Shown here: one piece after another, positions 9,361-55,103 of the stretch
How positions within the stretch are numbered: the first letter of the stretch is position 1
How the letters are laid out: each line of letters begins with the position of its first letter
From: Escherichia coli
Lineage (GTDB): Bacteria; Pseudomonadota; Gammaproteobacteria; Enterobacterales; Enterobacteriaceae
DNA length: 64,000 nucleotides
NCBI RefSeq assembly: GCF_041248615.1
Contig: NZ_CP158426.1
Strand: one strand, 5' to 3'
The notes under the pieces: model-generated
What the model was told of the DNA's origin: nothing
Seen by the model: only the letters and a program-made list of their open reading frames with translations
Databases searched by the model: none
Position numbers and translations under genes: made by a program

Positions 9361-12059
9361 GACGCCGTGATTTTTTTCGTCACCTCAGCGATATCACGCT
9401 CCGCACGCTGCCTCACATCTTTCTCCAGCTGCGTCATTTCGCGGTTAATCTCATTCTCCAGTTGCTCAACTTCAGTGCGCCGTGCAGAGGCATCAATGCG
9501 TTCATTGATCTCCCGTCCCAGATGCGTTTTATTTATCGCCCCCCTGAAAAAATCCAGGTAACCTTCGGCATCATCGCTCGCCCGACCGACGGCCTCCACG
9601 AATGTCGATTTGCCGACTGTGTTCACACTGCGAACGTAAAAATAATAATCATGGCCCGGCTTAATATTCTGGCCGGAGACAAGCCACTGACTTCCGGTAC
9701 CAAGATAACGGGCTGTGGTTTCAACCTGCCTGATATCAGCAATCCGCTTTTCCGAAAACCAGAACTCAAACTGTACCGTCGGATCATAAACCGCAAGATG
9801 CGGCGTGGCGGTTATCTGAAAATAGCCCGGCGTCAGCTCAATCCGCGATGGCGCTGCCGGTGCGGCAATCCGGAACGATACCGACGCCGGATCGCCCTGC
9901 TGCCCCCACGCATTTACCGCCCGGACTGTCAGACTGTAATTTCCCAGAGCCAGCTGCCTGAAGCGGTATGTGGTTTCCGTCGTCCGGGCCGTGCTGACCA
10001 GCCGCTCACTGCCGTCATCCGCTGCCACGGTCAGGCGAAGCATAAAGCTCACGCCCTTCACCACCTTCGGCGTATCCCAGCGTGCCAGCACCTGGTATTC
10101 CCCGCTGTCTGCGGTGACTTCTGCGGTCAGGTGTTGCACTGCTGGCGGCGTGACACCATTCACCGTGCCGCTCTGGTCGCCGTCAAAGTACGCCCCGTTA
10201 TCCACGATGGCCTCTTTTTCCGGTACATGCTGCACGGCGGTGATGGCATACGTGCCGTCGTCGTTCTCACGGATACTCACGCAGCGGAACAGGCGCTGGC
10301 GCAGCGTCGGCAGCTTCAGCCCCCACACGCTGTACTCGGCAACGCCGTCAGGAACCCGGCTCACTTTCACCTTCACGCCGTCGGTGACGGACTGAACCTC
10401 CACGCTGACCGGATTGCCACTTCCGTCAACCAGGCTTATCAGCGTGGTACCGGAGGATGGCAGCGTGATTTCACGGTCTAGCGTCAGCGTCCGGGTCTGG
10501 CTGTTCACCGCCAGCACACGACCACCGGTGCTGATACCGGCATAGTCATCATCACAGATTTCAATGACATCGCCCGGTACATGGCGAAGCCCTTCAGCAC
10601 CCACGCTGAAATCCACGGTCTGCGTCTCCAGCAGTTCTGTTTTAATCAGCCACAGCCCGGCGCGGTGTGCCTGCCCCCGGCTGGTACAGCCAAAGGCATC
10701 CATCTTCGTGACGTTACGACCGTAACGGGCAATGGCCTGCGTGTCCTCCACAAGCTCTGTCGCCGTCTCCTGGCCGTTATCCGGGTCACTCCAGTTCACC
10801 TCAACGGCATTATGGCGGTCCTTCAGGGCGCTGAAGCTGTAGCGGAACGGCGCGCCATCATCCGGCATCACCACATTACTGCGGTTATAGGTCCACACCT
10901 TATCCGACGGTCGGTCCTGCACGAACGTCAGCGTCTGCCCGTTCCATACCGGCATACAGCGCATCGCCGAGCAGAAATCACTGAGCACATCCCACGCCTT
11001 GCGCTGTGTGGTCAGCCAGGCATTACAGGTGATGCGCGGCTCCGTGCCACCAGAGCCGTCCGGCACTGACTGGTCGCAGTACTGGCCGATGACATACAGC
11101 GCCCATTTGTCCACATCCGCCGCACCAAGACGTTTCCCCATGCCGTAGCGCGGGTGGGTCAGCATATCCCACAGACACCAGGCCGGGTTATCGCTGTATG
11201 CCGGTTTAAACGTTCCGTCCCAGATACCGCTGTATTGCCGCGTCTGCGGGTTATAGTTCGACGGCACCTGCAGAATGCGCCCGCGAAGATGATAATTACG
11301 GCTCACCTGCTGGCTGCCGAACTGCTCCGAATCCACCTGCACACCGACCAGTGCCGTGTTCGGGTAGCACTGTTTCACATCGATGATTTCGGTGTATGAC
11401 GACCAGAGCGTTTTGTTCTGCAGCTGGTCTGTGGTGCTGTCCGGCGTCATCCTGCGCATCCGGATACTGAACGGGCGCGGCGGCAGGTTACCCACCACCA
11501 CCGGGGCCAGATACTGCGAGGTGGTTTTTCCCTTAATGGTGATGTCTTTTTCCGTTAACCAGCGACCGTTACGCTGTATCTGAACCAGCAGGCGGACTTC
11601 CGACGGATTCCGGTCCCCCTTTGAGGTGGTTTCCACCAGTGCCTGCACACCGAAGGTCAGGCGCAGACGGTCGATGTTTGCCGACGTGATGGTCCGGGTG
11701 ATCGGCGTGTCGTATTTCACTTCCGTACCCAGCACCGTCTCGGAGCCGGAGGATTCAAACCCCTCCGGCGGTGTCTGCTCCTGCTCACCGGCCCGGAAAA
11801 CCACCGTGACACCGGAGATATTGGTATTCCCCTCACTGTCCAGCACCGGCGTACCGTTCAGCAGCACGCTTTTTAATCCATCCACCGGTCCTTGTATCGG
11901 CCCTTCGCTGATGACATCGATCACACTCAGCAACTGCGTGGATTTCAGATTGTCCTTCGCTTCGCGCGGGGTATGCCCCTTACTGCTGCCTTTACCCATT
12001 CGTCATGCTCCATAAACGACAAAACCGCCCGGAGGCGGTTTCACATAAAATGTTTTGCA

Positions 12060-14051: not shown

Positions 14052-14380
14052 CAGTTCACCACCTGTTCAAACTCTGCGCTGAACTCAACACGCAGCATAC
14101 TGACCCGCGACGACCATTTTGCGCAGGTCACCTTTATCTGCCGCCACTCATAAGGCGGCGTCCACAGAAAGGCCTTCCAGCCCCCGTGCTCAGCCAGAAA
14201 CGACTCCAGCGCCGTGGCCTCCCAACGGGGAACAGAAAGCGTCACGCTGTACGTTTTCAGGTCGGCATTCAGCCCGGCAGGCGCTCGCTGGGAATAGCCA
14301 TCACCAAAGCGCACCTTTCTTACAGAAGGGGCCGAAGCCACATCCATACCGGGTTTCACTTTCCAGCGGAAGGTTTTCAT
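14051..14380 (-). CDS. M: minor tail protein M
   Basis: Lambda gpM homolog, 109 aa. Confidence 0.9.
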   Translation of the reverse strand: MKTFRWKVKPGMDVASAPSVRKVRFGDGYSQRAPAGLNADLKTYSVTLSVPRWEATALESFLAEHGGWKAFLWTPPYEWRQIKVTCAKWSSRVSMLRVEFSAEFEQVVN

Positions 14381-16956
14381 CGTCCACCTCCGGAGAACAG
14401 GCCACCATCACGCATCTGTGTCTGAATTTCATCACGGGCACCCTTGCGGGCCATGTCATACACTGCCTTCATCATCTGTGGACCTGGCAGACCATTCGTA
14501 CCGTCGTTCTGAATCACCACGTGATTGTTCTGATTAAAATTAATGCCTTCAGCCCGCCGCATCTGCGCCGGACTTCCGGTGCCACCGACATAACCACCAG
14601 TGGCATAGCCGCGCATCAGCCGGTAGAGATTCCCCACGCCAATCCGGCTGGTTGCCTCCTTCGTGAAGACAAATTCACCACGGTGAACAATCCCCGCTGG
14701 CTCATATTTGCCGCCGGTTCCCGTAAATCCTCCGGTCGCAAAATGGAATTTTGCCGCAGCAGCCTGAATGGCTGTACCGCCTGACACTGATGCGCCACCA
14801 CCGGCAGCACCGCCAATGACGCTGCCGATACTCCCGACAATCCCCACCATTGCCTGCTTAACCAGAATTTCTGTCATCATGGACAGCACGGAACGGGTGA
14901 AGCTGCGCCAGTTCTGTTCACTGCCGGTCAGCATCGCCGCCATATTCTGCGCAATACCATCAAAGGTCTGCGTGGCAGCACTTTTAACCTGCGACATACT
15001 GTCCGTGGCGCTCTCTTCCCACTCACTCCAGCCGGACTTCAGGCCTGCCATCCAGCTCCCGCGAAGCAGGTCTTCAGCCGCCCAGGTCTTTTTCTGCTCT
15101 GACATGACGTTATTCAGCGCCAGCGGATTATCGCCATACTGTTCCTTCAGGCGCTGTTCCGTGGCTTCCCGTTCTGCCTGCCGGTCAGTCAGCCCCCGGC
15201 TTTTCGCATCAATGGCGGCCCGTTTTGCCCGTTGCTGCTGTGCGAATTTATCCGCCTGCTGCGCCAGCGCGTTCAGGCGCTCCTGATACGTAACCTTGTC
15301 GCCAAGTGCAGCCAGCTGGCGTTTGTACTCCAGCGTCTCATCTTTATGCGCCAGCAGGGATTTCTCCTGTGCAGACAGCTGGCGACGTTGCGCCGCCTCC
15401 TCCAGTACCGCGAACTGACTCTCCGCCTTCCACAAATCCCGGCGCTGCTGGCTGATTTTCTCATTTGCTCCGGCATGCTTCTCCAGCGTCCGGAGTTCAG
15501 CCTGAAGCGTCAGCAGGGCAGCATGAGCACTGTCTTCCTGACGATCGCCCGCAGACACCTTCACGCCGGACTGTTTCGGCTTTTTCAGCGTCGCTTCATA
15601 ATCCTTTTTCGCCGCCGCCATCAGCGTGTTGTAATCTGCCTGCAGGATTTTCCCGTCTTTCAGTGCCTTGTTCAGTTCTTCCTGACGGGCGGTATATTTC
15701 TCCAGCGGTGTCTGCAGGCGTTCGTAAGCCTTCTGCGCCTCTTCGGTATATTTCAGCCGTGATGCCTCAGAGTCGGCCCAGTCCTTTGCTGCCATCTCTC
15801 TGGCCTTTTCAAGATCGGCCTGCAACGTGGCGGCTGAAAGCCCAAGTTGCGCATTCGCTCTGTCCTCCCATGCTCCCCGGAGATTGGCAAGAAATGCTGA
15901 GGTTTTACCGCGCCGGTGGCTCCGGCTCTGATACCACTGCCATTTTTTGTCCGCCTCATCAAAAGCCTTTTCTGCTTTCTCCAGCATTTCCCGGGCAGTG
16001 TCCGGGCGACCAATATCCAGCACCGAATCCCACATGGATTTGAATGCCCGCGCTGTCCTGTCTGCCCAGGTCTCCAGCGTGCCCATGTTCTCTTTCAGGC
16101 GGCGGGTCTGGTCATCAAACCCTTTCGTTGCGGCCTCGTTCGCCGCCTGCAATGCCCCTGCCTCATCGCCGGAACGCTGCAACTGAGCAACATACGCAAT
16201 CTGCTCCGCCGTCACGTTATGGAACTGACGCGCCATCGCTGTCAGCCCTGACGTCGGGTCTGTGGTCAGCTTCCCGAAGGCTTCAGCGACCTTGTCCACC
16301 TCCACGCCGGATGCAGAGGAGAAACGCGCCACACTCTGGCTGATGGACGCAATCTGAGCCTCACCGCTTACCCCCGCCTTAACCAGTGCGCTGAGTGACT
16401 CGCTGGTCTGGTTAAACGTCAGCCCTGCCGCCTGCCCGGCTCTGGACAGGACCAGCATACGATCTGCCGTCAGACCCGACTGATTGCCGGAAAGGACCAG
16501 CGTTTTGTTGAAATCGGACAGGGTTGAGTTGCCCTGATACCAGGCATACGCCAGCGCACCGGTCGCCACCGCCAGCGAGGTGGCCCCGACCATCGGCAGG
16601 GTGATCGCACCGGCAAGCCCCCTGAACATGGGGATCATCCCGCCGAAGGAGTCCTTCACCTGCCCCCCCTGTTGCAGCAGGATCAGCCACGGACTTTGCC
16701 CGCCTGCAAGCTGCGTGGCCACGTCGGTGAACTGTGCAGGCAGCATACGCATGGCGGCTTTATACTGCCCGACGGAAATCCCCGCTTTCTGTGCAGCCAG
16801 CGCCTGCCGGTTCATTGACTGTTCAACGACTGCCGCTGTTTTTTTCGCATCACTTTCCGTACCGGAAAAATGACGCCTGACTCTGGCCATCTGCTCGTCA
16901 AATCTGGCCGCATCCAGACTTAAATCAACGACCAGATCGCCTACCGGTTCAGCCAT
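14377..16956 (-). CDS. H: tail tape measure protein H
   Basis: 859 aa, lambda gpH-like. Confidence 0.9.
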   Translation of the reverse strand: MAEPVGDLVVDLSLDAARFDEQMARVRRHFSGTESDAKKTAAVVEQSMNRQALAAQKAGISVGQYKAAMRMLPAQFTDVATQLAGGQSPWLILLQQGGQVKDSFGGMIPMFRGLAGAITLPMVGATSLAVATGALAYAWYQGNSTLSDFNKTLVLSGNQSGLTADRMLVLSRAGQAAGLTFNQTSESLSALVKAGVSGEAQIASISQSVARFSSASGVEVDKVAEAFGKLTTDPTSGLTAMARQFHNVTAEQIAYVAQLQRSGDEAGALQAANEAATKGFDDQTRRLKENMGTLETWADRTARAFKSMWDSVLDIGRPDTAREMLEKAEKAFDEADKKWQWYQSRSHRRGKTSAFLANLRGAWEDRANAQLGLSAATLQADLEKAREMAAKDWADSEASRLKYTEEAQKAYERLQTPLEKYTARQEELNKALKDGKILQADYNTLMAAAKKDYEATLKKPKQSGVKVSAGDRQEDSAHAALLTLQAELRTLEKHAGANEKISQQRRDLWKAESQFAVLEEAAQRRQLSAQEKSLLAHKDETLEYKRQLAALGDKVTYQERLNALAQQADKFAQQQRAKRAAIDAKSRGLTDRQAEREATEQRLKEQYGDNPLALNNVMSEQKKTWAAEDLLRGSWMAGLKSGWSEWEESATDSMSQVKSAATQTFDGIAQNMAAMLTGSEQNWRSFTRSVLSMMTEILVKQAMVGIVGSIGSVIGGAAGGGASVSGGTAIQAAAAKFHFATGGFTGTGGKYEPAGIVHRGEFVFTKEATSRIGVGNLYRLMRGYATGGYVGGTGSPAQMRRAEGINFNQNNHVVIQNDGTNGLPGPQMMKAVYDMARKGARDEIQTQMRDGGLFSGGGR

Positions 16957-17383
16957 ACCGGACTCCTCCTGCGATCCCTTCTGATACTGTCATCAGCATT
17001 ACGTCATCCTCCGTCATGTCCGCCACATCCGGGGAAGCGGGGATAACTTCATTCCCGTCCGGGCCAAAGCGGACACCTCCGGCAAGCCCTGCCGCTTTCT
17101 GCATCAGCACATCATCTTCAGGCTCTTCGTCAGCCTCACGCCGGTTCAGCAAACTGAAATCCAGCGGATGCATATCCGGATCGCTGAAAAACAGGCTGAG
17201 CACGGTGTACGTCAGCCCGGAAAAGTGCATATCCAGCAGAACATCATGAAAATAATGGGTACTGTAAAAGCGGTGCCAGTCGGCATACTCCGTGGATGAC
17301 ATCCCGGCAAGCATGGCACGCCAGTCGGGTCGCCCCATCTCACGCGCCAGTTTCAGGGCAAAACTCAGCTCACCGTCGAACAC
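16949..17383 (-). CDS. T: tail assembly protein T, expected to be made as a G-T fusion by -1 frameshift
   Basis: Lambda gpT-like ORF beginning at the slippery site near the end of G. Confidence 0.85.
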   Translation of the reverse strand: MFDGELSFALKLAREMGRPDWRAMLAGMSSTEYADWHRFYSTHYFHDVLLDMHFSGLTYTVLSLFFSDPDMHPLDFSLLNRREADEEPEDDVLMQKAAGLAGGVRFGPDGNEVIPASPDVADMTEDDVMLMTVSEGIAGGVRYG

Positions 17384-17787
17384 TTTCCCGCAGAAACAGG
17401 CTCTGCAGGCCCGGCGTCATCTGCCTGTTCAGGGGCATTATTCACCACAAACTCATACATACCGGACAGCCGGTACACCACGTTTTCAGCATGATAAATT
17501 GCCTGTGTGGGCCAGGTGGTAAGCACTTCCTGCTCAATCTGTTTAACGGCTTCATTCATGGAAGGCTGCTTTGTCTTCTGCGGATGGTTATGCCACAGGG
17601 ACATCGCCACCAGAAACGCGCCGGTTCTGATGGCGTCTTCCACAGTAAACTTCCGGTTGCTGTCTGACTCCGCCTGTTCTGCCTGCCGTTTCATCAGGGC
17701 GAGATGCTCAATACGCTGCAGGGCTGACAGTTCAGAAAGCGTGACGGTCACGCCGTTATGTTCAAATTGTTCTGTTTTCAGAAACAT
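17365..17787 (-). CDS. G: tail assembly chaperone G
   Basis: 140 aa, near-identical to lambda gpG. Confidence 0.9.
   Translation of the reverse strand: MFLKTEQFEHNGVTVTLSELSALQRIEHLALMKRQAEQAESDSNRKFTVEDAIRTGAFLVAMSLWHNHPQKTKQPSMNEAVKQIEQEVLTTWPTQAIYHAENVVYRLSGMYEFVVNNAPEQADDAGPAEPVSAGKCSTVS
17383..17389 (-). other. programmed -1 frameshift slippery heptamer GGGAAAG (G to G-T)
   Basis: Minus-strand GGGAAAG at the G/T overlap, same motif and position as lambda. Confidence 0.7.
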
Positions 17788-17800
17788 GTATTACCTCCGT

Positions 17801-18553
17801 TTACCCTGCAGCGCCCGCTTCAGTAACGGTGACTTCAGCCACTGCGGCGAACTGACCATTTCCGCTCACCACAGGGATCTGCACCTTACCTGTCGCCACG
17901 CCGTTTACCGTAATTGTCATATCTTTCACACTAATGGTGGCTTTCGACGGATCGGCGGAAACCGCTCTGAACGTCTTGTCGGTTGCACTTTCCGGCTCAA
18001 AAGAAACCGTCAGGGTGGTTGTTTTCCCTTTTGCCACCGTACCGGATGTCGGCGTCACCTTAATCGCACTGACCGGCGTAATTTTGCTGCGTTCTTCCGC
18101 TACAGAAGGTTTACCCACGTTAGTGACTTTCACCGTGCGGGTGATCACTTCTTTCGCCGTCACCGCCTTACCGATGCTGCTGACCCAGCCGCGGAACACA
18201 TCGACCGTGCCGTTCGGGAAGCGGATTTTATAGGCACGGGTATCACCTTCATTAAACCACGCCAGCAGCGCCTGCTGCCCCTGCTCTCCGGGCATCCACG
18301 CCAGCGTGAAGCTGGTATCTCCGGCGGATTTCTGCCCCTGTCCGGTCGCGGCCCAGTCCGCATCTTCATCATCGAGATAACTGTCGTCATAGGACTCAGC
18401 GGTCAGTTCGCCGGGCGTCAGGTCTTTAACTTTAGCCAGACGCGACCAGTCAACGTCTGAAAGCGGGTTCGCATAAGGGTCACCGTTCCCCTTATAAACC
18501 CACAGTGTGGTCCCGGCCCCTTTCACCGGTGCCAGAGGATTTGGTGTTGGCAT
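17801..18553 (-). CDS. V: major tail protein V
   Basis: Lambda gpV-like from [29 protein letters not shown]. Confidence 0.9.
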
Positions 18554-32300: not shown

Positions 32301-32578
32301 ATTGTGGTGCTTTTTGTGGGAGTCATCCACTTACGCACTTTGTTTTGCTATGCTAGCAGTTAGCTTCTGCTGTAAAACTATTCATGCAGCAAACCTGCAC
32401 TTCACCACAATGGTTAGCATACTTTTCCTGATTAAGTTATTGCCAAATATGCTGGCCATTGTTTCATGTATTGGATCTCCTTACTATTTATTAAAGAGAT
32501 CCAATATTCACCACTCTGTCTGTATCTCCACTCAGGCATCAGCCTTCTTCGTTATCGTATACAGACAAACTATTAATT

Positions 32579-32794
32579 TTAATCAGTAATTATGACATTT
32601 GCTGCTGCAGGACCTTTAGCACCACTCTCTACAGAGAAGGTAACCTTTTGACCTTCAAATAAGGTTCGATAATTATCATTCTGAATCGCAGAAAAATGCA
32701 CAAACACATCTTTACTACCATCAACAGGAGAAATAAAGCCAAAACCTTTATCAGCGTTAAACCATTTTACTAAACCAGTCATTTTATTTGACAT
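32579..32794 (-). CDS. cold shock protein (CspB-like)
   Basis: [21 protein letters not shown]... canonical CspA-family sequence. Confidence 0.8.
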
Positions 32795-33093
32795 TCTACA
32801 TTCCTTAACTTGAGCCTTTCGGCATAAATGGCTTGTATAACAGAAACGACTTCGTACTTAATTGGAGAGACTCAAAGAAGGAATAAGTGAATAACACCTG
32901 AAATGAGAACTGCTTTAGTAAACTACTTCGTATATCGTCTGTTCTTCAAACCGACGCAATCATTAACGCATAGTTGAACATATGAAGCAATGTTTATTTT
33001 AGACATCCAGCCATCTTCAACCCCATCAAAAAACTATAGCTTTCTTCAGGAACGTGTGTATAGTGCGCCAAGTTATCAGTATTAAGGAATTTT

Positions 33094-47878: not shown

Positions 47879-50011
47879 TCAATCTTTAAGACTAATTGTG
47901 ATTGCATCTGGAAATCCAATTTGGCTATAGCACATAGTTTCGGTTATGAATAATTTTCTATCGATAAAATCAAGTACATCTTTTTTCGTGAGCCCCGTTA
48001 ACATCGTCAATTTGTTAATTACATAATCATACCAATCATGGTGAAGCATGTTTATATACATGTTAATATCAACTGCATCTTTCTTCCATGAATTATTCGG
48101 TATCAAATCTTCAGATAAAAATCCTCTTATTAAATCGCTTGCATAGGACATCCTAAGAAAAACAGAAAGAAAAAGCCTTACATTAACATGTGTAAAATTT
48201 GTAGATAGCGTCGAAGGAAACTCGTAAAACCGGTAGATCAACCGACTTACAAAAACAGCAGAGTCTATCGCATTTACAGGCAGTAATGTTCCGATGACAC
48301 TTAATGCACCACTTATAACGAAGCCATTAGCAACAGAGGCATGAGAACCACTTAGGGCAGATGTTAAACATGCACTCAGAATTACGATAGGAGGAATTCT
48401 TGCTATTTTTCTCAAACTCCAAGTGTCCACTTTATCCTCACCTATTATTAACCATCCATGACTCCCATTGCCATCATGGTTTCCATGACAATCCATAACA
48501 AGAATATGACCTTGATATTGATTTAGAGCATCAATAAACTCAGCTTTCGATCTAACATCAATAATCTCGCAATCAAGATCTGGCATCTGTTTTTTAAATA
48601 TCTCAATTGCGTTCTCTAATATGAACTTTAAGTGATCATCAGGCTCAAAAGAACGTATAACTAAAACCTTTCTCAACTCAGATGCTTTTACTAAAACGCG
48701 CGGAAAAGCAGAGGCGCTCTGTAGAAGAACGTTACCAGGCGTAGCATTTATTCTTGATATCTCATGACTGAACATTATAGGTATGTTATTAAACCTAATC
48801 CAATCCAATGGTACATCACAAACAAAGGACAAATCGCTATAGTTTTTACTTATATATGTTCTCAACTTGCAACCAAGGGCTCTTCGAATAACAGTATTGA
48901 ATGCTTTAGATTTAGTGATGAATGCTTCACTATTTATCCCAGAAGAAGTTGCAAGATCTTCAAGATTTTTCAAATAATTGGAGTAATGATTTATTGCATT
49001 TGGCAATCTTATTGCTGGGATTTTTTTATTTATGCTAAATAAAGTAATCGCAGCTGTTGTTAATCGCATTTCAGCGCGTCTTAGTGAGGTGAGGTAACGG
49101 AAAGCAGGACTTTTAAAAAGTTCTTTTCTATCTGAATTTATATCAAGTCTAATTCCAGAATAGCCTGGATTCCTCAACACTCCATCAATAAGGAATTTTT
49201 TCTCAATTGTGGATAAATTTTCCGTTATTAACTCATAAAAGTCATTATTTTTATCATATAAAAAAGAGTGCATACCCGGAGCAAAAAGTAAGACTTCCGT
49301 TGGAAGTGGTATATCTAATTCCTTTAAACATTCGGTGTATGCATCAACGCTATGAAGTATTATTTCTATAAACTCTCTTTTGCTACTACCATCTTTAATT
49401 CTTTTTGGTGGAGATAGCATATAGCCAAGTGATTCAATTAACAACTCATTGGGTAGTGTTGAATTGTTAAGCGTCGATCTCCAAGGTGATTTATTAAATA
49501 AAGCCCCTCTTCGCTTCAACTTCGTTGATATTTTCTTTTCACTGTGATTTTTTCTTATTTTATCCTCAATGAATTTCAACCGAGAGAAGAGCACCTTATC
49601 AAATGAGTATATACTATTAATCTTATTAAGTGGTAGATCAGCGCGTTTAGAATTGCAACAAATTATAGGTGGTATAGCAAAATGTTTTTTTAAAGCACAA
49701 ACATACGAAAAATCTTCTTTAGCACAAAAAATTAAGCAAAATGGCGTTTGATAAATATTTGGTATTTTTTCAAGATTTTCTTTAGATATTAAAAAAATAG
49801 GATTTAGCCCGCTTAGAGTAGGCTGAAAGTTATCATTTTCACTGACAAAAATCTCACTAATTTCTTTTGGTGTTTTGGCCAATAAAAAAAGAATGTTGGA
49901 TATCTCTGGGTTGAGGAGGCCAGTATCGAAACCTTGGATTATGGTTTGTTCCCCAGTAGTAGGCATGATTACAACTTTAAGTATCGCCCCGTGTTCCTGT
50001 AACAGTTCCAT
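47879..50011 (-). CDS. CHAT-domain (caspase-like cysteine protease) protein with an uncharacterised N-terminal region
   Basis: C-terminal GHILVMDCHGNHDG ... PPIVILSACLTSALSGSHASVANGFVISGALSVIG has the His-Gly / Ser-Ala-Cys catalytic signature of CHAT peptidases; AGGA SD before MELLQ; strongly AT-rich. Confidence 0.6.
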   Translation of the reverse strand: MELLQEHGAILKVVIMPTTGEQTIIQGFDTGLLNPEISNILFLLAKTPKEISEIFVSENDNFQPTLSGLNPIFLISKENLEKIPNIYQTPFCLIFCAKEDFSYVCALKKHFAIPPIICCNSKRADLPLNKINSIYSFDKVLFSRLKFIEDKIRKNHSEKKISTKLKRRGALFNKSPWRSTLNNSTLPNELLIESLGYMLSPPKRIKDGSSKREFIEIILHSVDAYTECLKELDIPLPTEVLLFAPGMHSFLYDKNNDFYELITENLSTIEKKFLIDGVLRNPGYSGIRLDINSDRKELFKSPAFRYLTSLRRAEMRLTTAAITLFSINKKIPAIRLPNAINHYSNYLKNLEDLATSSGINSEAFITKSKAFNTVIRRALGCKLRTYISKNYSDLSFVCDVPLDWIRFNNIPIMFSHEISRINATPGNVLLQSASAFPRVLVKASELRKVLVIRSFEPDDHLKFILENAIEIFKKQMPDLDCEIIDVRSKAEFIDALNQYQGHILVMDCHGNHDGNGSHGWLIIGEDKVDTWSLRKIARIPPIVILSACLTSALSGSHASVANGFVISGALSVIGTLLPVNAIDSAVFVSRLIYRFYEFPSTLSTNFTHVNVRLFLSVFLRMSYASDLIRGFLSEDLIPNNSWKKDAVDINMYINMLHHDWYDYVINKLTMLTGLTKKDVLDFIDRKLFITETMCYSQIGFPDAITISLKD

Positions 50012-50144: not shown

Positions 50145-51362
50145 CTAGTCTGAACAAGTACAAGTAACTATCGATTCAACTCTCTCCCACCATGCCTGGT
50201 AAGCTTTACGCTGTTCATCTAAATAATCGCTCTTGTCATAAACCTGCCATACCCCTGGCAGTTTATGACCGAGCATTATTTCTGCAATATGAGGTGCAGT
50301 AAGATCAGAAAAGTTTGTTCGTGCTGTTCGTCTCAAATCATGAAGAGACCAATGAGGGAATTGATACCCCAAACGCCGCCATGCGTACTGCATTAAATTG
50401 TAAGGCAGCGACTGCAATGATGTCCGGCCAACGGGTTCCCTGCTTCCTTCCTTAGTAAAAAGCATATCGGAACCATTGTTCATAGAGATAACGTACTTTA
50501 TAAGCTCTTCAACCGGTTCAATAATGGGGCGCTTTAGCGGTTCGCCTGTTATATCCCCTGTCTTATGTCGTTCTGGCGGTACAGTCCATACCTTATTAAT
50601 GAAATCAAAATCATTCACCCTAGCGGTAATTAGCTCTGAACTACGGCAGCCAAAATGCAGCAATAGTTTAATGAAGGCCCGGTATTTAGGAACCATTCGA
50701 GAACCATCGATCGCAGCATAAAGGATTTTAATTTCATCATGTGTCAGAAACCGTTTCTTCTGACCTTTACGGATATCCATATCTTTACCCGTGATATCCG
50801 ACAGCGGGCGAGTTTCAATGAGCTTTCTCTTATACGCCCAGACATGGGCCTGCTTTGCGTTAATTAGCAATCGGTCTGCTATTGCTGGAGTCTTAGTGCT
50901 AAGAGGCTCCAGGACTTCTAACCAATCATGCAATGTAGCTGCATCGTGAGGGATATTCCCGATTTTAGAGAACAGGTGCAGCTCAAACGAGCGGAGTATC
51001 TGTTCAGAACCTTTTTTATTTTTTACACAATATGCTTCATACCAGGCACGGATCACAGACTCTACCGTCATGGCTTCAGTAGCTTTTCGTTTTTCAGCCT
51101 GCTTGACTAATCGTGGATTGCGGTTTGACTCGAGTTCACCACGGAGACGGATAACTTCTTCTCTGGCCTCTTTTAATCCAGTTGCCGGGTAAGTTCCGAT
51201 ATCAAGGCGCTCACCTTTCCCTGCCCATTGATAACGATATTGGAACACTACGCGACCTTTCGGTGATACTCTGACAGACAGACCATCACGATCGGATTTA
51301 ACCAAAACCTTATCACGTTCCTTTCCAACGACTGAACGCAACCACGCATCAGACAGCGCCAT
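50145..51362 (-). CDS. tyrosine recombinase / phage integrase (P4-type)
   Basis: 405 aa; N-terminal DGLSVRVSPKGRVVFQYRY; C-terminal HDLRRTART ... LGH ... Y catalytic pattern. Confidence 0.85.
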   Translation of the reverse strand: MALSDAWLRSVVGKERDKVLVKSDRDGLSVRVSPKGRVVFQYRYQWAGKGERLDIGTYPATGLKEAREEVIRLRGELESNRNPRLVKQAEKRKATEAMTVESVIRAWYEAYCVKNKKGSEQILRSFELHLFSKIGNIPHDAATLHDWLEVLEPLSTKTPAIADRLLINAKQAHVWAYKRKLIETRPLSDITGKDMDIRKGQKKRFLTHDEIKILYAAIDGSRMVPKYRAFIKLLLHFGCRSSELITARVNDFDFINKVWTVPPERHKTGDITGEPLKRPIIEPVEELIKYVISMNNGSDMLFTKEGSREPVGRTSLQSLPYNLMQYAWRRLGYQFPHWSLHDLRRTARTNFSDLTAPHIAEIMLGHKLPGVWQVYDKSDYLDEQRKAYQAWWERVESIVTCTCSD

Positions 51363-54404: not shown

Positions 54405-54662
<258 letters not shown>

Positions 54663-54711
54663 TCCTGATGGCCATTTTTCCAGCAATTACACCTCCGGCG
54701 ATAATTAACTA

Positions 54712-54739
54712 TTGACGAAAAGCTGAAAACCACTAGAAT
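54712..54739 (+). promoter_or_regulatory. putative promoter of the tRNA-Leu operon
   Basis: TTGACG, 16-bp spacer, TAGAAT, then GC-rich discriminator GCGCCTCC, about 40 bp upstream of the first tRNA. Confidence 0.55.
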
Positions 54740-54780
54740 GCGCCTCCGTGGTAGCAATTCTTTTTAAGAATTGATGGTAT

Positions 54781-54867
54781 GCGAAGGTGGCGGAATTGGT
54801 AGACGCGCTAGCTTCAGGTGTTAGTGTCCTTACGGACGTGGGGGTTCAAGTCCCCCCCCTCGCACCA
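54781..54867 (+). tRNA. leuQ: tRNA-Leu (CAG)
   Basis: 87-nt sequence GCGAAGGTGGCGGAATTGGTAGACGCGCTAGCTTCAGGTG...CTCGCACCA with anticodon loop CTTCAGGT and long variable arm. Confidence 0.9.
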
Positions 54868-54895
54868 AAAACCACGTTGATATTGCTCGCACTGG

Positions 54896-54982
54896 GCGAA
54901 GGTGGCGGAATTGGTAGACGCGCTAGCTTCAGGTGTTAGTGTCCTTACGGACGTGGGGGTTCAAGTCCCCCCCCTCGCACCA
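54896..54982 (+). tRNA. leuP: tRNA-Leu (CAG)
   Basis: Identical second copy. Confidence 0.9.
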
Positions 54983-55016
54983 AACGAGGCGATATCAAAA
55001 AAAGTAAGATGACTGT

Positions 55017-55103
55017 GCGAAGGTGGCGGAATTGGTAGACGCGCTAGCTTCAGGTGTTAGTGTCCTTACGGACGTGGGGGTTCAAGTCCCCCCCCTCGCA
55101 CCA
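55017..55103 (+). tRNA. leuV: tRNA-Leu (CAG)
   Basis: Identical third copy. Confidence 0.9.

Follow-up and report, generated by a model that had tools for sequence, protein, structure and literature searches.

A GGGAAAG slip site at the G/T gene overlap of an Escherichia coli lambdoid prophage is very probably a copy of the lambda G-T programmed frameshift site

The tail genes G and T of a lambdoid prophage in the E. coli chromosome overlap at a slippery heptamer, G_GGA_AAG, which is very probably a lambda-type G-T programmed -1 ribosomal frameshift site. The prophage lies in a 64,000-nucleotide stretch of contig NZ_CP158426.1 (assembly GCF_041248615.1), hereafter the window, to which the chromosome of E. 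coli NRZ14408 (NZ_LT599825.1) is 100% identical, window position w corresponding to position 4579545 + w of that record. The reading builds on the site, its phase, the two frames, homology, synteny and the family-wide conservation of an in-phase slip site, all observed directly, and on lambda, from which we infer that a slip takes place, how often it does so and what the proteins do in the window strain. The G-T slip site is already known, and this is an ordinary copy of a textbook recoding site: the lambda G/G-T -1 frameshift is the subject of work by Levin, Hendrix & Casjens (1993) and Xu, Hendrix & Duda (2004, 2013, 2014), as cited in PMC5009743, and the lambda slip site is given as GGGAAAG in Table 1 of PMC3296357 and as G_GGA_AAG in PMC7618472. 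Since lambda has this same site in the same surroundings and the same host species, the same mechanism is by far the best explanation.

The initial annotation had placed a GGGAAAG heptamer at the G/T overlap, between 17365 and 17400, and this was confirmed: the heptamer occupies 17389..17383 of the minus strand (a strand that the annotation had not given) and reads CTTTCCC on the plus strand. Gene G (17365..17787, minus strand) opens with an ATG at 17787, closes with a TGA at 17367..17365 and encodes, as its zero-frame product, a tail assembly chaperone of 140 aa that matches PF06894 (Phage_TAC_2) with E=2e-58 and the equivalog TIGR01674 (phage_lambda_G) with 208 bits against a cutoff of 74. 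A Shine-Dalgarno sequence, GGAGG (17794..17798, minus strand), can be read from the sequence 6 nt 5' of the G ATG (acGGAGGtaatacATG). The heptamer begins at offset 398 of the G open reading frame (398 mod 3 = 2) and comprises the last base of codon 133 together with codons 134-135; its phase is G_GGA_AAG, specifying Gly-Lys both in the zero frame (GGA AAG) and in the -1 frame (GGG AAA). The G stop codon starts 15 nt 3' of the heptamer, the same spacing as in lambda.

The T reading frame, -1 relative to G, is open from 17416 to 16949 on the minus strand, bounded by an upstream TGA at 17419..17417 and a final TGA at 16951..16949, and its overlap with G (the stop of which ends at 17365) is 52 nt. 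After a slip at the heptamer the T frame would be entered at 17383 and contribute 144 further residues, and the predicted G-T fusion (16949..17787, minus strand) would accordingly consist of G residues 1-135 plus these 144 residues, or 279 aa, with a computed junction of ...PVSAGK/VFDGELSF.... T matches PF06223 (Phage_tail_T) with E = 2e-14 and the equivalog TIGR01715 (phage_lam_T) with 185.8 bits (cutoff 77), and the fusion matches both equivalogs in tandem and far above their cutoffs, the G model at residues 1-136 and the T model at residues 140-245. A search of the PDB by sequence found no solved relative of G-T. RefSeq/PGAP carries G and T as two coding sequences with no ribosomal_slippage join, placing T at 16949..17383 from a GTG start that consists of the last base of the heptamer plus TG, and the G-T fusion is missing from its protein set.

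It is the configuration of the heptamer, and not its mere occurrence, that is distinctive. The bare GGGAAAG string is not enriched in the window (12 copies versus 8.7 expected, with 18 of 100 shuffles reaching 12), and the G/T site is the sole copy among the 12 that has the X_XXY_YYZ phase in a real coding frame. We also searched the entire window, on either strand, for XXXWWWN heptamers that are in phase, lying no more than 90 nt from the end of an open frame, with at least 80 open codons upstream and a -1 extension of at least 80 codons. Five heptamers in four places were returned, and only at G-T and at the insA/insB' genes of IS1 (two overlapping heptamers) is the zero frame that of an annotated gene; at 24365 (portal gene) and 53048 (holD/rimI) the zero frame differs from the annotated gene frame. 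Shuffled windows gave a mean of 0.36 hits, a control that is weak evidence since shuffling destroys long open reading frames; that real coding frames underlie just two of the four places carries more weight. The scan thus singles out the two known programmed frameshifts of the window. The second of these, the only other true recoding site present, belongs to an IS1B element (43045..43742, plus strand) in the early region of the prophage, where the heptamers lie at 43293-43302, RefSeq applies the label 'programmed frameshift', and A_AAA_AAC at 43296..43302 stands 15 nt before the zero-frame stop. IS1 insA-insB' resembles G-T in making a low-frequency fusion by a -1 slip at an A-rich heptamer, with the same 15-nt distance to the zero-frame stop, but its product is an unrelated transposase and it regulates transposition rather than assembly stoichiometry.

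The surroundings of the site are those of the lambda tail gene cluster. Upstream of G lies the gene for the major tail tube protein (17801..18553, minus strand; a RefSeq CDS), a homologue of lambda V that matches PF16461 (Phage_TTP_12) with E=2e-69 and carries a C-terminal Big_2 domain (PF02368). Downstream is the tape measure gene (14377..16956, minus strand), encoding an 859-aa homologue of lambda H with matches to PF06791 (TMP_2, E=1e-69) and PF09718 (Tape_meas_lam_C), the ATG of which overlaps the end of T. Homologues of lambda U and M flank this V-G-T-H block, all four genes of which are on the minus strand, and the gene order of the window, Z-U-V-G-T-H-M-L, is that of lambda.

The check that the initial annotation had named, alignment with lambda G-T, was carried out against J02459. 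The segment 16940..17800 is 97.6% identical to lambda 9711..10558, which covers G, T and the start of H, and pairwise alignment shows 254 consecutive nucleotides that include the heptamer (17153..17406) to be identical. At the protein level T is the same as in lambda throughout, and G has 7 substitutions in its 140 residues relative to lambda gpG (S7Q, Q73K, M74Q, E95Q, S98Y, T122A and E123D). Window and lambda thus have in common the heptamer, its phase, the 15 nt to the G stop, the V-G-T-H order and the host species. They differ in that the -1 frame opens 39 nt 5' of the heptamer in lambda but 27 nt 5' of it here, that lambda H has 853 aa versus 859, and that lambda is a free phage whereas the window locus lies in a chromosomal prophage with insertion sequences. 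The earlier proposal that a tail chaperone fusion is made as in lambda is supported by the heptamer, its phase, the distance to the stop, synteny, the equivalog matches and the identical T.

The annotation had further called the site conserved, and an in-phase slip site is indeed kept across the family. We compared 12 phage loci spanning ~97% down to ~35% protein identity (lambda, Turner, two Stx2a-type phages, an Stx1-type phage, CP-1639, Stx2_KH16-043, N15, phi80, cdtI, Gifsy-1 and the window), and within a short G/T overlap of 25-85 nt each of the 12 has a slip site that is in phase. The heptamer is G_GGA_AAG in the lambda and Stx2a types, A_AAA_AAG in the Stx1 and CP-1639 types, and G_GAA_AAG in N15, phi80, cdtI and Gifsy-1. 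The N15 and phi80 records label their own heptamer "slippery sequence for -1 translational frameshift", and those of phi80, N15 and Gifsy-1 treat T as the second part of a protein made by frameshifting. Among 240 independent viral loci drawn from three IMG/VR scans, all 240 have an in-phase NNNA_AAG or NNNA_AAA site in the G/T overlap, which is mostly 31-79 nt long. The most frequent heptamer was G_GAA_AAG (140 loci, 15 or 3 nt before the G stop), followed by G_GGA_AAG (78 loci, 15 nt before it), G_GCA_AAA or G_GAA_AAA (17 loci, directly abutting a TAG stop), A_GAA_AAG (3 loci, 0 or 15 nt before the stop) and A_AAA_AAG (2 loci, 15 nt before it). The 5' half of the slip site and the flanking codons vary across loci, and the 252-locus census identifies the conserved core of the site as the phased A-site Lys codon, A_AAG or A_AAA, and not the full heptamer. 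The same gene pair and position, the -1 direction and the in-phase A-site A_AAG Lys codon are thus common to the window, N15 (genes 14/15), phi80 (gpG-T), Gifsy-1 and the Stx phages. Where the window has G_GGA_AAG, other lambdoid phages have G_GAA_AAG or A_AAA_AAG, or in a few cases G_GCA_AAA abutting the stop, and their stop codons follow the slip site at 0, 3 or 15 nt. Within the species, 3749 of 5426 complete E. coli genomes contain a related G-T region.

Some of the IMG/VR loci depart from the common layout. One group (L147-L168, e.g. L147, L151 and L160) has a divergent T lineage in which G_GCA_AAA or G_GAA_AAA lies against TAG with no spacer, in contrast to the 15-nt spacing of lambda; a stop codon occupying the A site might help to bring about the shift in this group. 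Two related viral contigs keep the heptamer and carry lesions in T. In IMGVR_UViG_2537562188_000009 (L065) a 1-nt insertion in a run of G (G5, not G4) at ~745..760, ~50 nt past the heptamer, breaks the T frame and may be a sequencing error or mark a pseudogene, and in IMGVR_UViG_2874956758_000002 (L045) an in-frame 45-nt deletion has removed RAMLAGMSSTEYADW from T.

To see whether the heptamer is accompanied by stimulatory elements we considered both sides of the site. The 30 nt that precede the heptamer contain none of the Shine-Dalgarno-like motifs AGGAGG, GGAGG, AGGAG, GGAG, GAGG or AGGA, which rules out an upstream stimulator of the dnaX kind, and Rfam holds no curated RNA family over the slip site. 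Downstream, the fold of the single sequence did not stand out (z = -1.84; 8 of 200 shuffled sequences folded equally well or better). RNAalifold on the 12 loci proposed an outer stem 8 nt 3' of the heptamer (alignment columns 16-22 / 78-84; window 17374..17368 / 17312..17306) that encloses an inner hairpin (columns 41-56 / 61-76; window 17349..17334 / 17329..17314). Its covariation term was negligible (-0.19), and pair counting on the same loci gave a covariation of 0.181 versus a shuffled mean of 0.064, a value reached in 0 of 500 shuffles, with slid versions at or below 0.088; one pair of the candidate structure shows G-C, A-U and C-G.

The candidate structure was derived from the same few lineages, and it was therefore tested on independent IMG/VR sequences. 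In 26 distinct lambda/Stx-like sequences the outer helix was 100% and the inner helix 98.9% paired, and in 39 distinct N15-like sequences the values were 100% and 91.4%, but both sets are nearly invariant and hence uninformative on pairing. In 33 distinct divergent sequences (Gifsy/cdtI-like and beyond) pairing fell to 59.6% for the outer helix (51.0% after a slide of +1) and 57.8% for the inner helix (50.9% after the same slide), several pairs of the structure being just 3-6% paired. With pairing in the divergent sequences near background, a family-wide downstream stimulatory structure is rejected. A clade-restricted mRNA structure 3' of the heptamer could tune the efficiency of frameshifting in lambda-like and N15-like phages, where the candidate is 91-100% paired and one G-C to A-U compensatory change separates the two clades, but no observation calls for such a structure and we regard this as improbable.

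If the site works as it does in lambda, ribosomes would initiate at the G ATG (17787, minus strand), which has a strong Shine-Dalgarno sequence, and the majority would terminate at the TGA at 17367..17365 to yield the 140-aa gpG. A minority would act otherwise at G_GGA_AAG: there, tRNA-Gly would occupy the P site (GGA) and tRNA-Lys(mnm5s2UUU) the A site (AAG), both tRNAs would slip back by one base onto GGG_AAA, and translation would then run in the T frame to 16949, giving the 279-aa gpGT. In lambda, normal translation yields gpG and a -1 shift at G_GGA_AAG yields gpGT, with ~96% of ribosomes staying in frame and the shift of ~4% having been measured in E. coli (PMC3296357), and the resulting ratio of ~30 gpG per gpGT is essential for tail assembly (PMC5009743, PMC3296357). 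Few heptamers in E. coli are as prone to shifting as G_GGA_AAG (PMC5009743). The tRNA that reads both Lys codons is tRNA-Lys(mnm5s2UUU); when its U34 is not thiolated, shifting becomes more frequent and the yield of phage falls (PMC3296357; PMC7618472). The partner bound by the G parts of the lambda proteins is gpH, the tape measure protein, and that bound by the T domain is gpV, the tail tube protein (PMC5009743); by analogy, H would here be coated by the G parts of gpG and gpGT, the rare gpGT would use its T domain to recruit V, and the fixed gpG:gpGT ratio would make tail assembly work, with neither protein present in the virion.

The prophage itself extends from approximately 1.7-2 kb of the window to an integrase gene (50145..51362, minus strand) next to yjjG. 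Its tail-tip gene J is split by a copy of IS1414 (IS256 family; 7425..8739) flanked by an 8-bp target duplication, ACAAACAA, into minus-strand fragments at ~8740..11999 and 6771..7424, and removal of the element and one duplicate restores a single J open reading frame of 1301 codons. A second IS1414 (46413..47727), 37.7 kb away, 100% identical to the first and inverted relative to it, has its own 8-bp duplication (GGGCATCA) and sits between the early prophage genes and a gene for a 710-aa CHAT-domain protein (47879..50011, minus strand). An inversion between the two copies was ruled out, each keeping its own duplication and the J halves being collinear. The CHAT-domain gene lies between the second IS1414 and the integrase, a position typical of prophage cargo such as a defence gene.

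Several further features of the window may be recorded here. A match to the Rfam cspA thermoregulator (159.6 bits; 32516..32955, minus strand) lies upstream of a prophage-borne cspB-like cold-shock gene, and this region, with cspF/cspB/ynfU and the lysis genes essQ/rrrQ, is similar to the Qin prophage. Past the tail fibre end of the lambdoid prophage, at approximately 1..1700 and 2051..2863, are Mu-like genes (a Mor activator, gp16 and, further on, Gam) with a truncated YadA-like adhesin pseudogene near them, and a second, Mu-type prophage appears to abut the lambdoid one. At the other end, 54448..55100 is ordinary chromosomal context (rsmC to yjjZ), with three tandem tRNA-Leu genes at 54781..55100 (plus strand) preceded by two matches to naRNA4, a REP-derived Rfam family, on the opposite strand.

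Three other accounts of the locus deserve consideration. The RefSeq/PGAP annotation, which has 'phage tail assembly protein T' as a coding sequence of its own from the GTG at 17383, and the old lambda record J02459, which does likewise, would imply that G and T are translated independently and that the heptamer is incidental. That GTG is made of the final base of the heptamer plus TG, and it is confined to lambda-like loci: GTG is present at the window junction, but the first T-frame codon after the slip is elsewhere GTC, GCA or GCC, none of them a start codon, as in 8 of the 12 phage loci, where the T frame and the in-phase slip site are nonetheless conserved. There is thus no conserved T start codon, nor a Shine-Dalgarno-like motif within 30 nt upstream, and both facts speak against a T that is initiated on its own, as do the phi80, N15 and Gifsy-1 records and the reviews that state the frameshift origin of lambda gpGT (PMC5009743, PMC3296357, PMC7618472); we consider it very improbable. 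Even less credence attaches to a change of frame during transcription, with RNA polymerase slipping on the G/A run, although bacteria are known to make frameshifted products in this way too (PMC5009743). Our analysis of the G-T site found no support for it, and the runs at the heptamer are only three G and three A. Transcriptional slippage typically needs homopolymer runs of ~7 or more. Moreover, the element conserved across lineages is the phased A_AAG Lys codon and not run length, and the lambda shift rate responds to tRNA-Lys U34 thiolation, a property of the ribosome (PMC3296357).

The third account concerns expression rather than mechanism, since production of the fusion in the window strain needs transcription of the late operon of the prophage. 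The prophage could be a defective relic in which that operon is never expressed and no fusion is made despite an intact signal, as might be suspected from the interruption of J by IS1414, the second IS1414 and the IS1B in the early/integration region, and one early prophage gene annotated as frameshifted. Yet the late genes from terminase to I are all annotated as intact, G-T shows no decay, with T identical to lambda T, and a repressor, a Q-like antiterminator, lysis genes and an integrase are present. The insertions are also recent, both IS1414 copies being 100% identical with 8-bp target duplications, and that in J lies downstream of G-T in the operon, where it cannot block translation of G-T and would not prevent it once the late operon is on. 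We therefore hold a wholly inert locus to be unlikely, and retain the lambda-type programmed frameshift as our reading of the site. The prophage is nevertheless probably not fully functional: with J split by IS1414 it is unlikely to give infectious particles, and the G-T site may rarely or never serve phage production here.

For annotation, the biologically correct description of this locus is G together with a G-T product joined by ribosomal slippage, where RefSeq has separate coding sequences, and the G-T locus and the IS1 site, lying in the same window, are clean positive controls for pipelines that detect frameshifts.
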